Of a stretch of 64,000 bases of DNA, positions 4,315 through 46,470 are shown piece after piece. A model generated the notes under the pieces. That model worked only from the letters and a program-made list of their open reading frames with translations. It made no database searches and was not told where the DNA came from. This stretch comes from Lama glama. Taxonomy: Eukaryota. Location of the stretch: assembly GCA_028534125.1 (NCBI GenBank), contig CM052816.1:39806001-39870000 (forward strand), written 5' to 3'. Within the stretch, counting starts at the first letter, position 1. Each line of letters opens with the position of its first letter. The position numbers and the translations under genes are program-made.

Positions 4315-5677
4315 CTGAAGATAAAGAACGAACCTGGAGGAATAACCCTCCCAGGCTTCAGACAATACTACAGAGTTACAGTAATCAAAACAGCATGGTA
4401 TTGGCACAAAAACAGACATATGGATCAATGGAACAGAATAGAGAGGCCAGAAATAAAACCAGAGACCTATGGTCAATTAATCTTCGACAAAGGAGGCAAA
4501 AATATACAATGGAGAGGCCTAATTAAACTTATAAGCTTTTGCACAGCAAAGGAAACCATAAAGAAAACAAAATGACAACCTACAGAATGGGAGAAAATAT
4601 TTGCAAATGATGTGACTGAGAAAGGTTTAATTTCTAGAATATATAAACAGCTCATACAGCTTAATAACCAAAACCCAACAACCCAATCAAGAAATGGGCA
4701 GAAGACCTAAACAAGCAATTTCCCAATGCAGACGTACAAATAGCTAATAGGCACATGAAAAAAATGCTTAATATTGCTAAATATCAGAGAAATGCAATCA
4801 AAAGTATCACCTTATACCAGTCAGAATGGCCATCATTCAAAAGTCCACAAACAATAAATGCTGGAGAGGGTGTGCAGAAAAGGGAACCCTCCCACACTGT
4901 TAGTGGGAATGTAGTTTGATGCAGCCATTATGGAAAACAGTGGATATTCCTCAAATAACTAAAAATAGACTTACTATATGATCCAGCAATCCCACTCCTG
5001 GGCATATATCTGGAGGGAACACTAATTCAAAAAGATACATGTACCACAGTGTTCATAGCAGCACTATATACAATAGCCAAGAGATGGAAGCAACCTAAAT
5101 GTCCATTGGCAGATGACTGGATAAAGAAATTGTGGTATATTTATACAATGAAATACTAATCAGCCATAAAAAGGAATAAAATAATGCCATTTGCACTAAC
5201 ATAGATGGACCTGGGGATTGTCATTCTAAGTGAAGTAAGCCAGAAAGAGAAAGAAAAATACCATATGAGATCACTCATATGTGGAATCTAAAAAAAAAAA
5301 AAAAAAAGAAGAAGAAGAAGAAAGAGGACACTAATGAAATCACACACAAAATAGAAACAGGCTTGCAGACATAGTAAACAATCTTATGGTTACTCCGAGA
5401 AGGAGGTGGGGAGGGATAAACTTGGGAGTTTGAAATTTGCAAATGTTAACCACTATATATATAAATAGATTCAAAAAATTTCTTCTGTATAGCACAGGGA
5501 ACTATATTCAATACCTTGTAATAATCTTTAATGAAAAAGAACATGAAGACAAATATATGTATATGTATGCATCACTAGGACATTGTGCTGTGCACCAGAA
5601 ATTGATGCATTGTAATTGACTATACTTCAGTTTAAAAATAAATAAATAAATAGTAACTGCTATTTAAAAAAAAAAAG
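4315..5677 (+). mobile_element. Young lineage-specific L1, 5'-truncated with internal deletions, poly(A) tail present
   Basis: ORF2 C-terminal sequence (tggtattggcacaaaaacagacatatggatcaatggaacagaatagagag), 3' UTR ending gactatacttcag, A-rich tail at 5634-5676; possible AAGATAA target-site duplication. Confidence 0.9.
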
Positions 5678-6900
5678 ATAACCCATGTTTATAGATCAGA
5701 AGAATTAATTTTGCTAAAATGTCCATACTATTGAAAGACATCTATAGCTTCAAGAAATTCCCTAACAAAATTCTAATGGCATTTTTCACTAACAAAATAA
5801 ACAATTCTAAAATTTACGTGGACCACTAAGGAGTCCAAATAGCCAAAGCAATCCTGAGAAAGAAAAACAAAACTGGAGGCATCACACTTCTCAAATCAAA
5901 CCATATTACCAAGCTATGGTAATCAAAATAATATGGTACTGCCATAAAAGTAGACACAGAGACCAATGGAACAGAACCAAGAGGCCTAAACCCTCACATG
6001 TACAATCAACTTATATTTTATAAGAGAACCAAGAATACTCAATGGAGAAAGGACAGTTTCTTCATTAAATGGTGTTGGGGAAACCGAATACCCCATGTTT
6101 TAGCCCCATTCTTTAAAATGAAGCAGTCCCCTATCTCACATCACTAAAAAAATTAAGTTGCAATGATTAAAGACTTAAACATAATATCTTAAACCATAAA
6201 ACTCCTGGAAGAAAACATAGAGGAAAAGCTCCTTGACACTGGTCTTGGCAATGAGTTTTTGGATATAACACCAAAAGAACAAGCAACAAAAGCAAAAACT
6301 TCAATAAGTGGTACCGTATCATACTGAAAAGGATCTGCACAGCAAAAACAAAAACAAAAACAAAACAATAAAAAAAAAATGAAAGTTAACCCATAGAATG
6401 GGAGAAAATATTTGCGAACCACCTAGCTGTTAAGTGGTATATCCAAGGCGTATAAGTAACCCACATACCTCAATAGCAAGGAACAATCTGGTTAAAAAAA
6501 ATGTACAGAGGAACTGAATAGACATTTTTCCAAAGAAGAAGTAAATACGATCAAGAGGTACATGAAAGGTGCTTAACATCAATAATCATCATGTAAATGC
6601 CAATCAGAATCACACCACATAAGATATCACCTCAAATCTGATAGAATGGCTATCATTAAAAAGACAATTTGTTAGTGAGGATGCACAGAAAAGGGAACCC
6701 ATGCGCACTGTTGTTGGGAAAGTAATGATACAGCACCTGTGGAAAACTGTATGGCTGTTCCTCAAAAAATTAAAATACAACTAGCATATGATCTTCAATC
6801 CCAGTTCTGGTCATATACCCAAAGGATTCTGAAGGTATATCTCCACTTCCATGCTAATTGCTGCATGGAAACAACCTATGTGTCTACAGATCAATGGACG
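5678..6900 (+). mobile_element. Older L1 (L1MA-like) ORF2 3' part, host of the young L1
   Basis: Degenerate ORF2 (cccatgtttatagatcagaagaattaat...atagccaaagcaatcctgagaaagaaaaacaaaactggaggcatcacac...tggaaacaacctatgtgtc). Confidence 0.85.
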
Positions 6901-6935
6901 CGCGCGCACACACACACACACACAAATACACATAC
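6899..6935. repeat. (CG)4(CA)n microsatellite
   Basis: cgcgcgcgcacacacacacacacacaaatacacatac. Confidence 0.9.
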
Positions 6936-7840
6936 CCACTCCTTCAGTGGCTGCAGGACTCAGTCTGGGTGCTATACGCGCGTCTCTAGATTCACCGGCC
7001 AGCCTTCCACAACCTGCTAGAGCCGGCCACCCACCACCACCCTGGCTTCCAACAGCTGCGCATTATCTGGCCTTCCTGCCCTTTTCACGTACTCTTTGCC
7101 TCTGGCCACTCGCCCAGGAACCCCTTCACTGGCAGCCAGTCGAAGGCCCCAAACCGGAAGAGCTGGACGCAAACCGCGACCCAGACGCAAGTGACGCACA
7201 CCACGTGTCCAAGTTCGCCCCTAGAGCACGTAGCTGTACTGCGCAGGTGAGAAGCAGCAGCTGACCAGCCTCGTGGGCACGGCGCTTCCCTACGGCCTGT
7301 TGTCCGCCAGGAGCACACGCACAAGAAGCAGCGTGTCTCCGGGCTGGAGCCCAACTTGGAAGAGGTCTGCGCCATCCCAGGCTGCCCGCCCAAAAGCCCC
7401 TCACCTACCAAGCCAAGCAGCTGGTCGCCTGGGAGATCGAAGGGGAGAAGACACAGTGGGTGGAGGCCTTGGCCCAGGCTGGCTTCAGTCCCCAGGTGGA
7501 CGGGGGTCCAGGTCGACTGGGGGAGCTGGAGGGAAAGGGGCGCAGCCACCCTTTCTGAGCTGCCAACCCTTCAGCGCAGCTATAAGCAGCGGCTAGAGCG
7601 TATCTCAAAGAGAGTAGCCCGAAGGGCTGCCGGAGAGGGACCTCTTCTTTCGTGTGGTCATCAGGGGAGCGACAGCCTTAAGCGCACGGGACCGGCCAAG
7701 CGGCGCATGGTCACTGCGGCGGATGGGCGCATGGTCACGTTTTGCTAAACGCAGTGCTCCCCAACGCGGTGCTGTGAAGCCTGTACTTCAGGAACTGGCT
7801 GTAGCCTCGGGGTCCATGCCAGACGCCCTGGACCCACACT
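6935..7840 (+). pseudogene. CHTF18: Processed pseudogene (retrocopy) of CHTF18, the RFC-like clamp-loader subunit; C-terminal part only, multiple frameshifts and stops
   Basis: Reading across frameshifts gives SLGAIRASLD..HHPGFQ..YLAFLP..FHVLFASGHSPRNPFTGSQSKAPNRKS..LYCAGEKQQLTSLVGTALPYGL..RQEHTHKKQRVSGLEPNLEEVC..PLTYQAKQLVAWEIEGEK..SPQVDG..RSYKQRLERISKR..PERDLFFRVVIR..KRRMVTA..PNAVL*SLYFRNWL-stop (TAG 7802-7804). This is colinear with the recalled human CHTF18 C-terminus (FHVLFASSHTPR, LYSTREKQQLASLVGTMLAYSL, LEPNVEELC, PLTYQTKQLIAREIEVEK, SPQVDG, PEKDFFGRVVVR, NAVRRSLYIRDLL). No introns. Confidence 0.92.
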
Positions 7841-7853
7841 GGGTAAGGTAAGT
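7840..7853 (+). other. Tandem 5' splice donors TGG|GTAAGG (7843) and AAG|GTAAGT (7848)
   Basis: Sequence tgggtaaggtaagt at the downstream edge of the CpG island; the second site is a perfect consensus donor. Confidence 0.45.
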
Positions 7854-7859
7854 TAGCTT

Positions 7860-8245
7860 CTTTTTTTGGTTTTAAAAGTTTAATTTATTGTAGTAAAAAC
7901 GTTAACATGATACCTAACCACTTAATAGATTTTTAAGTGTACAATACAATATTGTTAACTATAGGCACAATATTGTATAGCAGATCTCTAGAACTTATGC
8001 ATCTTGCGTTACTGAAACTTTATGCTTATTAATTAACAACTCCTCATTTTCCTCACACCCCTGGAATTATGCAGTCTATTTGTCCTTTGATTCGCTTATA
8101 TCGCCAAGCATAATGTCCTCGAGGTTCTTACTGTTCTCCATAATGGCTGCACCAAACTACCTTCTCGAACCAGCAGTGTGGGAGGGTTCCCTTTTCTCCA
8201 CACCTTCTCTAGCGTTTATTTTTTGTAGACGTTTTGATGATGGAA
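7860..8245 (-). mobile_element. L1 3' end fragments (L1MA9/10-like plus a short younger L1 piece)
   Basis: tttttaagtgtacaatacaatattgttaactataggcacaatattgtatagcagatctctagaacttat, then ctgttctccataatggctgcaccaaactac...ttcccttttctccacacc. Confidence 0.8.
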
Positions 8246-8463
8246 ATAGAGAAAGATTCTAAATACATAATATAATTCCTAAATATAATGGAAGGCAAAC
8301 AATTTATTAAATACAAAAATTAGATGTTTCTGACTTTCAAAAAGTCAGTGCAGACAAAGCATGCCTATTTTATCATAGAATATGTACATAATTACTAATG
8401 AGGTAACTTTAGATTATTGATAAAAAAATGAAATGATAATGGAATAATCATAGTTCAGGCATA

Positions 8464-8905
8464 TGAAAATGGAGACAGGTTGGGAGGCCATTGAGGACCA
8501 GGTCTCAGATAAGTCCCTGTACCACTGAGAACTTGAACTTCCTGTGAACTATGCCTAAGTAACCCAAGGACACTAGCCATTTTTAAAACAACATCTGCCA
8601 GCTGCTACCTTGTGTCCCAGGGTTTTCTCCCCATTGTAACTATGCAACCATTTCGGATCCCACCCGTCCTTGCTTAACAAGCACCGTCATTTCTTGCCAG
8701 CTCCAATTACACTCCTTGATAAACAACTCATGTAACTCATTGTGGCCTTATAGTTTTTGCCTTTATAAGCTTCCTCCATTTTGTAGTTCAGTGGAACACA
8801 ATTCAAGTGTTCCTTGAACCTGTCTCTCAGGCTGCAGTCCTAACAAGCCCCAAATAAAAACACCTCTTTATTTCAGTCAGATCGCCATTTCTGAAATTTT
8901 GTTCA
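8464..8905 (+). mobile_element. Solo ERV LTR
   Basis: TG...CA termini, GCATA/GCACA flanks (5-bp TSD with one mismatch), TATAA at about 8764 and AATAAA at about 8853; homologous to the LTR at 23800-24416. Confidence 0.75.
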
Positions 8906-23799: not shown

Positions 23800-24416
23800 T
23801 GATGGAAGACATTTCACATACAGAGGCATGGGGAAGTCATTCTGGGTTGTACATGATTTAACTTGAACTTTATGCTAACCAGAACAGTCTGTTTTATGGC
23901 TTATCAAACATACATTGTACACCTGCTTTAACCAGGAAAGAAAATAATGCATTTAAAAATCAAAATGGAGTAACTGTGGTTCAGGCATCCAGCATGGAAC
24001 AAAGTGGCCATTGTGGATGTGGTTTCAGACACGTTTCTGCATGACTGAGAACTGGCATTTTCTGAACTGTATTACACTCACAGGCACCACTAGCCTTTCT
24101 TAAGCAGCATCTGATAGCAGCTGCCAGCTGCAACCTTATAGTCTCAAGGTCTCCTCTTGTAACTCTGCAGCCATTTCAGACCCCAACAAATCCTTACTTT
24201 TAATAAGCACCCTTGCTTCTTGTCAGCTCCAACCCTAGTTCTTGACAAACAACTTATGTAATTTTGCGGGTTTGGCCTATATAAGTCCCTTCCACTTGGT
24301 AGCAGAATGGAACACAATTCAAGTGCTTCTTGATTCTGTGTCTCGCAGGCTATAGCTCTCTGTCTGGCTCAGATAAAACTCTTTTCTATTCCTGCTATAG
24401 GTTGTTAATTAATTAT
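23800..24416 (+). mobile_element. Solo ERV LTR inserted in L1 ORF1
   Basis: Interrupts antisense L1 sequence; starts with TG; shares ctgccagctgc, tgtaact..gca.ccatttc and ggaacacaattcaagtg with the LTR at 8464-8905. Confidence 0.75.
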
Positions 24417-43964: not shown

Positions 43965-46470
43965 ATAGGGGAGGAAAAATAACTTTCCCTCCACCATTCT
44001 AGGTTCTTGGCTAAGATCCTCTGTAATAAAAGACACATTACAGGAGAAAAATAAACAGAAGTTTAATAACATGCATACCTCCTGTATACAGGGGACAGAG
44101 TCAGGAAGACTGAATATCTCCCCCAGATGGCCCAAGACACCACCTTAAATCAATACCATTTCCATCTAAAGACAAAAGGAAGATGTTAAGGATGTGAGAG
44201 GTCAGTTTTGGGAGATTACCGGGAAAAGCACAGTAAACAAGTTACGGGTTGTTAGGCAGATTTCAGTCCCGCCTTTTTCACTGGTAAGAGTTTCCTGAGA
44301 TTTGGTCATTTGCTTCTTCCTGGTTACAGAGAGGGAGACCCTTATAAATGGAAATTTCCCTTACAAATATGAATATCTCTTGCAAAATTATAACTTTTAC
44401 TTGGTTTTCAGAGTTTCTCTTGTGTCTGTTGTTTCTTTAAAATAACCAATTCATTTTTTCATGTCCTTATTGGCCATCTGTAAGTCTTCATTGGAGAATT
44501 ACTTGTTTAGGTCTTCTGCGCATGTTTGGATTGGGTTGTTTGTCTTTTTGCTATTAAGCTGTATGTGCTGTTTATATATTCTGGAGATTAAACCTTTGTC
44601 AGTCACATCATTTGCAAATATTTTCTCCCATTCCATAGGTTGTTCTGTTTTGCTTCTGGTTTCCTTTTCTGTGCAAAAACTTATAAGTTTAATTAAGTCC
44701 CATTTGTTTAGTTTTGCTTTTATATCTATTGCCTGGGTAGACTGCCCTAGGAGAACATTGCTAAGATTTATGTCAGTGTTCTGCCTATGTTTTCTTCTAG
44801 GAGGTTTATCATGTCTTGTCTTATGTTTAAATCTTTAAGCCATTTTGAGTTTATTTTTGTGTATGGTGTGAAGGAGTGTTCTAACTTTATTGATTTACAT
44901 GTGACTGTCCAGTTTTCCCAGCACCACTTGCTGAAGAGACTTTCTTTTCTCCACTGTATGTTCCTGCCTCCTTTGTCAAAGATTAATTGACCAAAAGTCT
45001 GTGGGTTTATTTCTGGGCTCTTTGTTCTGTTCCATTGATCCATATGTCTGTTTTTATGCCAATACCACGCTGTTTTGATTACTTTAGCTCTGTAGTATTG
45101 TCTGGGTTATTCTTCCAACTTCATTCTCTTCCTTCAATATTGCTTTAGCAATTCTGGGTCTTTTGTGATTCTGTATAAATTTTAGGATTATTTGTTCTAG
45201 TTCTGTGAAAAATGTCCTGGGTAATTTGATAGAGATCACATTAAATCTGTAGTTTGCTTTGGGTAGTATGGCCATTTTAATAATATTAATTCTTCCAATC
45301 CAAGAGCATGGGATACCTTTCCATTTCTTTAAGTCATCTTTAATTTCCTTAATCAATGCTTTGTACTTCTCTGCATGTAAGTCTTTCTTCTCCTTGGTCA
45401 CATTTATTCCTATGTATTTTATTGTTTTGGATGCAGTTTTAAAAGGAATTGTTTCTTTACTCTCTTTTTCTGATATTTATCACTAATTATCAAAGAAATG
45501 CAAATCAAAACTATAATGAGGTATCACCTCACATCAGTCAGAATGGCCATCATTCAAAAGTCCACAAATGACAAATGCTGGAGAGGCTGTGGAGAAAAGG
45601 GAACCCTCCTATGCTGCTGGTGGGAATGTAGTTTGGTGCAGCCATTATGGAAAACAGTATGGAGATTCCTCAAAAAAGTAAAACAGATTTACCATATGAT
45701 CCAGCAATCCTACTCCTGGGCATGTATCTGGAGAAATGCTAATTCAAAAAGATACATGCACCCTAGTGTTCATAGCAGCACTATATACAATAGCCAAGAC
45801 ATGGAAGCAACCTAAATGTCCGTCAACAGAGGACTGGATAAAGAAGTTGTGTTATATTTATACAATGGTATATCACTCAGCAATTTAAAAATAGAAGAAA
45901 ATAATGCCATTTGCAGCAACATGCATGGACCTGGAGATTATCATTCTAACTGAAGTAAGCCAGAAAGAAAGAAAAATGCCATATATCACTCATATGTGGA
46001 ATCTAAAAAAAAAAAAAAAAAAGAAGAAGACAAAGGAAAAAGAGGACACTAATGAGCTACAGGACTACAAAACAGAAACAGACTTGCAGACATAGTAAAC
46101 AATGTTATGGTTACTGGGGGAAAGGGATTGGGAAGGGATAAATTTGGGAGTTTGGGATATGCAAATATTAACCATTGTATGTAAAAATAGATAAAAAACA
46201 TTTCTTCTGTATAGCATAGGGAATATTCAATATCTTGTAATAACCTTTAATGAAGAAGAATATGAACCAATATATGTATATATATGCATGACTGGGCTGT
46301 TATGCTGTATACCAGTAACTGACACATTGTAACTGGCTATACTTCAATTAAAGAAAAAAAAAAGAATTACCGTAAGAGACTGATCTTGAACTTCAACTCA
46401 AAAAAAAAATTCAAAATACTCAATATGCCAATAAGGCATATTTTGGGTGGTATATTTTGCTACCCTTCAC
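43965..46470 (-). mobile_element. MER34/MER39-like ERV1 solo LTR split by an L1 insertion (LTR parts 43965-44453 and about 46410-46470)
   Basis: gaagtttaataacatgcatac...accaccttaaat...taccatttccatctaaagacaaa; resumes aaatactcaatatgccaataaggcatattttgggtggtatattttgctacccttca; homologous to 59566-60113. Confidence 0.75.
44454..46413 (+). mobile_element. Young L1 with 5' inversion (twin priming): 44454-45480 antisense, 45481-46363 sense with poly(A)
   Basis: The inverted block ends at ..ggacatgaaaaaa and the sense block resumes at cactaattatcaaagaaatgc, about 10 nt further along L1; AATTCA flanks both sides. Confidence 0.9.

Follow-up and report, generated by a model that had tools for sequence, protein, structure and literature searches.

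The window, that is, the whole 64-kb stretch of llama DNA analysed, carries on its plus strand a decayed, intronless copy of the 3' coding region of CHTF18. The copy lies at 6948–7804, with a left edge that is fuzzy between 6938 and 6962, and corresponds to residues ~667–982 of the alpaca protein. Each of the three plus-strand frames matched the C-terminal third of human CHTF18 (PDB), with E values of 1e-13, 6e-6, and 1e-11. In a frameshift-aware alignment to alpaca CHTF18, residues 672–982 were placed over 6962–7801, and 158 of 268 residues were identical. About 10 frameshifts and three internal stops interrupt the copy, which ends in a TAG codon at 7802–7804. A functional retrogene was ruled out because the reading frame is destroyed. 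The GC-rich tail past the stop codon (7805–7850, plus strand), with no poly(A) after it, is likely a remnant of the 3' UTR. Together with this tail, the segment 6948–7850 represents the last ~310 codons of CHTF18 and is colinear with the parent at the protein level.

In mammalian genomic contigs, the ORFs stop matching CHTF18 near residues 827, 875, and 918 of the alpaca protein, and these breaks seem to mark introns of the parent gene. All three of these putative junctions are joined in the copy, whose largest insertion is 17 nt and whose deletions are up to 33 nt. As the three junctions are contiguous and no insertion is longer than 17 nt, the parent introns are absent; in other words, this is a retrocopy. 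The first-pass annotation had described an intronless, colinear copy of the CHTF18 C-terminal region with many frameshifts, and the alignment and the joined junctions bear this out. Among four features of processed pseudogenes, three were found (colinearity to the spliced mRNA, absence of introns, and a disabled frame), whereas the fourth, a poly(A) tail with a target-site duplication, was not: neither a poly(A) tail, nor a plus-strand AATAAA, nor a convincing target-site duplication was found at the copy. Given the age of the copy and the L1 piece next to its 3' end, loss of the tail and the duplication is plausible. The 64-kb window contains no further CHTF18 sequence, and none from the 5' two-thirds in particular. 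Searches with the three plus-strand frames of the copy against Pfam gave no family, and a search of the whole window against Rfam gave no match. To judge from titles and the openings of abstracts, none of the papers listed in a search for CHTF18 pseudogenes describes such a copy. A 93-residue ORF in another genome (P0010), which extends across the junction near residue 875, has the look of a separate decayed copy of CHTF18, whether orthologous or not.

The window as a whole is AT-rich, with a GC content of 0.358 and a CpG observed/expected ratio (o/e) of 0.20. The segment 6948–7850 contains 55 CpGs in 903 bp, with a GC content of 0.628 and an o/e of 0.62; when the adjoining microsatellite is included (6899–7853), these values are 59 CpGs, 0.623, and 0.64. 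The corresponding claim of the first-pass annotation, about 55 CpGs in 880 bp with GC above 60% in a CpG-poor window, was thus reproduced by the recount. In 89 background windows of 600 bp, the mean o/e was 0.17 and the maximum 0.45. A sliding-window scan with the Takai-Jones criteria (at least 500 bp, GC at least 0.55, and CpG o/e at least 0.65) identified 6948–7850 as the sole island of the window: the passing windows merge into 6791–7950 around a CpG-dense core at 6899–7825, the copy-wide average of the o/e being 0.62. The spacing of CpGs within the copy reveals no significant hole (p=0.65). The copy contains a local CpG-rich duplication of 22 nt on the plus strand at 7693–7738, whose two units are 82% alike and 24 nt apart. 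The duplication takes the place of some of the C-terminal coding sequence, and it means that a few CpGs of the copy arose by duplication. Judged by these sequence features, the copy is both a processed pseudogene and a CpG island, a kind of element that is already known. A second, small CpG-rich patch lies 6 kb from the copy, at 490–760 (14 CpGs in 271 bp, GC 0.59, o/e 0.62). It passes the Gardiner-Garden definition at 421–740 and contains no obvious ORF; it is possibly a promoter- or enhancer-like element.

The copy is embedded between L1-like pieces, as had been claimed; on both sides they were recognized in a BLAST of the window against itself, by their similarity to its further L1 pieces. 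The left flank is an old plus-strand L1 3' fragment (5664–6935), which ends in a (CG)4(CA)n microsatellite at 6899–6935 adjoining the copy. The right flank (7851–8450) consists of minus-strand L1 pieces: 8129–8243 was identified by BLAST, and 7860–8110 is presumably another such piece. In spite of its AT-richness (GC 0.31), the right 600 bp contain 8 CpGs against 2.8 expected (p=0.008, uncorrected, with four flank windows tested), and their o/e of 0.55 is above that of all 89 background windows. In the left flank, when the microsatellite is left out, 4 CpGs were observed against 3.4 expected (p=0.43), and there is no shore on this side. Hypomethylated islands are described as having "sloping shores" in the available part of one report (PMC4509998), and the AT-rich, CpG-enriched right flank resembles them. 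From its CpG content, this flank is a possible hypomethylated shore.

The copy is old. It differs at 59 of the 263 first and second codon positions that are invariant in 16 laurasiatherian proteins, a divergence of 22%; with a looser filter, 62 of 327 fixed positions differ. The JC distances are 0.22–0.27. None of 12 camelid-derived columns shows the camelid residue in the copy; 8 show the outgroup residue and 4 another one. At 9 artiodactyl-derived columns, it has the derived residue at 3, the outgroup residue at 4, and another at 2. Its identity to all 11 mammals compared is 54–59%, a range that makes the age independent of the host's being a camelid. When the copy was placed on the 37 branches of a fixed tree, for which 20 of the 120 listed homologues and cluster members had been aligned, the alpaca and dromedary tips were rejected (AU p=0.003), and the best placements were deep laurasiatherian or artiodactyl branches that are mutually indistinguishable. 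The poorly aligned stretches (before 6960, 7174–7214, 7680–7700, and 7716–7756) were excluded from the tree, the 62/327 and derived-column counts, and the CpG transition counts, simulations, and equilibrium-GC counts described below; all four were retained in the 59/263 count and in the overall W>S and S>W counts. The simplest reading of these placements is that the copy was inserted at, or close to, the stem of the artiodactyls, which we take to date from roughly 60 million years ago or more. A simply young copy is ruled out by the divergence, the lack of camelid-derived residues, and the rejected tip placements. The age proposed in the first-pass annotation is therefore borne out: low divergence from the parent, which would speak for a young copy, was looked for at the protein-fixed sites and not found.

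The CpGs of the copy have been decaying faster than its other sites. For this comparison, ancestral bases were taken from protein-fixed sites, and the starting CpG content was modelled from the protein and not from parent DNA; a degenerate motif scan of metagenome contigs for the parent DNA gave no match. Transitions have occurred at 9 of 34 C/G sites beside an intact CpG partner and at 9 of 105 other C/G sites (Fisher p=0.015). The likelihood estimate of this excess is 3-fold, with an interval of 1.75–5. A forward simulation in which third positions and newly formed CpGs also evolve gave a median of 4.2-fold (95%, 1.6–11.8). Its posterior share was 0.12 for an excess of at least 8-fold and 0.08 for one below 2-fold, against prior shares of 0.31 and 0.23; the posterior share at or above 8-fold varies from 7 to 16% with the starting CpG content assumed from the protein. 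Arginine codons show the same decay. Among those clearly aligned, 8 are still CGN and 8 have turned to TGN or CAN by hand count, and all five in 7391–7475 have gone to TGG or CAR. An island unmethylated in the germ line should show no excess of CpG transitions. The claim that the copy "stayed unmethylated" there thus conflicts with a mutation of CpG sites about 3–4 times faster than that of other sites.

On the other hand, the copy has retained more CpGs than fully methylated DNA of such divergence usually would, and in this respect the first-pass annotation holds. A methylated CpG mutates 10–50 times faster according to the available part of one report (PMC1764022). In simulations matched for non-CpG divergence, the observed o/e or more was reached in only 11% of runs with an 8- to 12-fold excess and 3% of runs with a 12- to 20-fold excess. 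As a control, four L1 copies of the window, which are less diverged than the CHTF18 copy (8–15%), were examined at 8 candidate CpG columns: CG is still present in 3 of 32 cells, in columns that may include sites that were never CpG. As the excess of 3- to 4-fold lies below 10-fold or more and the L1 copies have kept so few CpGs, the CpGs of the copy are being lost more slowly than those of its methylated neighbours and faster than unmethylated DNA would show.

How this intermediate rate arose is best explained, in our opinion with somewhat better than even chances, by a partial hypomethylation of the copy in the germ line. L1 reverse transcription would have put the CpG-dense CHTF18 coding sequence into AT-rich DNA as a 5'-truncated, frameshifted mRNA copy. 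The CpG density of the inherited sequence might then have shielded the copy from part of its germ-line methylation, and the male germ line is the simplest place for this. Escape from full germ-line methylation would slow the loss of CpGs, so that the island persists: the erosion would be neutral, slow, and ongoing, and the copy would still score as an island without needing any function. The high GC content of the copy offers another route to the same rate. Deamination depends on local GC, with slopes of -1.1 to -3.1 in the part of the report available (PMC1764022); by our own arithmetic from these slopes, the rate at GC 0.63 is predicted to be 2- to 7-fold below that at GC 0.36. High GC alone could therefore account for part of the retention, and an excess of 3- to 4-fold is within its reach. 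If so, the copy may be methylated like its surroundings and may owe its island look to very CpG-rich parent exons and slow deamination. The raised CpG-context transitions and the complete conversion of the arginine codons in 7391–7475 fit such a methylated copy, as does the fate of 104 human retrocopy-derived intronic islands, of which ~75% are fully methylated, ~15% unmethylated, and five intermediate in the accessible part of that study (PMC4122923). The rarity with which strongly accelerated simulations reach the observed o/e and the absence of a significant hole among the CpGs do not fit. Moreover, GC content does not explain the CpG enrichment of the AT-rich right flank; only this shore, present on one side, tells a real hypomethylation apart from a slow deamination due to high GC. 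Full methylation thus seems unlikely, though it deserves serious weight. Against partial hypomethylation stand the left flank, which has no shore, the GC dependence just described, and the lack of both a target-site duplication and a poly(A) tail. We also considered a copy methylated in its core and unmethylated at its ends, as the arginine codons in 7391–7475 and the counts by sub-region suggest. Within 7386–7490, 2 CpGs are intact and 3 decayed, against 16 and 6 outside; this arrangement was rejected in view of the spacing result. The same segment combines a low non-CpG divergence (3/46 sites, against 43/247 in the rest of the copy) with the fullest decay of arginine-codon CpGs, which may be chance.

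Two further explanations assume that CpGs have been replenished or selected. In the former, GC-biased gene conversion at a PRDM9-independent hotspot, a mechanism described in the available text of PMC11161765, would restore G/C and CpG. At sites that are not CpG-prone, the equilibrium GC (GC*) of the copy is 0.44 (W>S 8/94, S>W 11/103), as compared with 0.30 in distant L1 copies (45/695 and 68/449), and 7 of the 20 W>S changes of the copy lie in present CpGs. However, the difference in GC* falls short of significance (p=0.22); GC* in the left L1 flank is 0.36 (p=0.51), and the right piece has five W>S and five S>W changes. A GC* far under the present 0.63 means that the copy is losing GC. A strong gain of GC was therefore rejected, the overall counts being 20/128 for W>S and 29/135 for S>W and the flanks showing no excess, and we regard gene conversion as an improbable source of the CpGs. 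The co-option proposed in the first-pass annotation appears hardly more probable. The copy would act as an orphan CpG-island promoter or first exon with a plus-strand start, splicing out at 7847/7848 like CpG85 in RB1, and its CpGs would be under selection. Its island status has survived 22% divergence, and at its 3' edge (7845–7853, plus strand) lies a putative splice donor with the 5' consensus MAG/GTRAGT. This motif, the one real hint of such a use in the sequence and noticed post hoc, occurs 4 times in the window when both strands (128 kb) are counted, or ~0.003 per 100 bp. The copy also contains one each of ETS, E-box, CRE-like, YY1-like, and GC-box motifs, although such short promoter motifs are expected in any GC-rich kilobase. 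CpG85 itself provides a precedent, as far as the available parts of the reports show (PMC2791201, PMC3839921). On the other side, the divergence and the indel load look neutral, GC and CpG are being lost by the counts given above, and neither a downstream exon nor a host gene was identified. Half or more of the sequence words of 6500–8400 occur in 15 DNA runs; two RNA runs from one study contain fractions of 0.28 and 0.24 and three further RNA or possibly RNA entries 0.06–0.10. As the RNA runs may contain DNA, these matches were not taken as evidence of transcription. In a bolder version, to which we give very little credence, a copy predating the artiodactyl radiation would be an island unmethylated in sperm and methylated in oocytes, now firing as both promoter and first exon, with its donor at 7847/7848. 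If this were true, the island would parallel the RB1 imprint while being independent of it and much older, and pig, ruminants, and whales might share it; methylation confined to one of the two germ lines would then have left its footprint in the intermediate rate of CpG decay.

Returning to the partly hypomethylated, slowly eroding copy that we prefer, the closest known system seems to be PPP1R26P1, the KIAA0649 retrocopy in intron 2 of human RB1 that carries CpG85. From the parts of the reports available (PMC2791201, PMC3839921), it is likewise a 5'-truncated, dead retrocopy in which former coding sequence has kept or built an island; sister copies of PPP1R26P1 have lost their islands. CpG85 differs in having measured parent-of-origin methylation, promoter activity, a spliced start exon, and a known host intron. 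PPP1R26P1 is 87% identical to its parent; the CHTF18 copy is older and more diverged, and no host gene was found for it. Retrocopy-derived intronic islands in ASRGL1, PARP11, and PDXDC1 show hardly any methylation in sperm and an intermediate level in soma, according to the accessible part of PMC4122923. These islands are of primate age and have methylation data, whereas a comparable state of the CHTF18 copy is suggested by its mutation pattern only. Use of nearby orphan islands by retrocopies is mentioned in the available part of a further report (PMC4772013). The copy resembles L1-mediated processed pseudogenes in being intronless, 5'-truncated, destroyed in its frame, and far from its parent; unlike the usual ones, it has no poly(A) tail or target-site duplication, and its CpGs decay more slowly. 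With PRDM9-independent hotspots at germline-hypomethylated islands, as described in part of PMC11161765, it shares a candidate hypomethylated island and a slightly raised equilibrium GC; unlike them, it has no significant W>S excess. The copy is one more case in which coding sequence, once inserted into AT-rich DNA, can stay a CpG island over tens of millions of years. It might be of value as a datable, neutrally evolving record of germline methylation over long periods, and it could help to show whether a high CpG density guards a sequence against methylation in the absence of selection. Its importance would be greater only with proof that it serves as a promoter, whether active or imprinted.

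Other repeats of the window showed two further features. The pieces 8431–8833 and 23957–24351 are related (68% identical), and we take them to be solo LTRs from their appearance. The former, which follows the copy after 600 bp in the downstream direction and shares its strand, has an AATAAA near 8855. In addition, an L1 fragment changes strand at 45474–45483, with 44452–45476 on the minus and 45483–46369 on the plus strand; this arrangement resembles a 5'-inverted L1 insertion.
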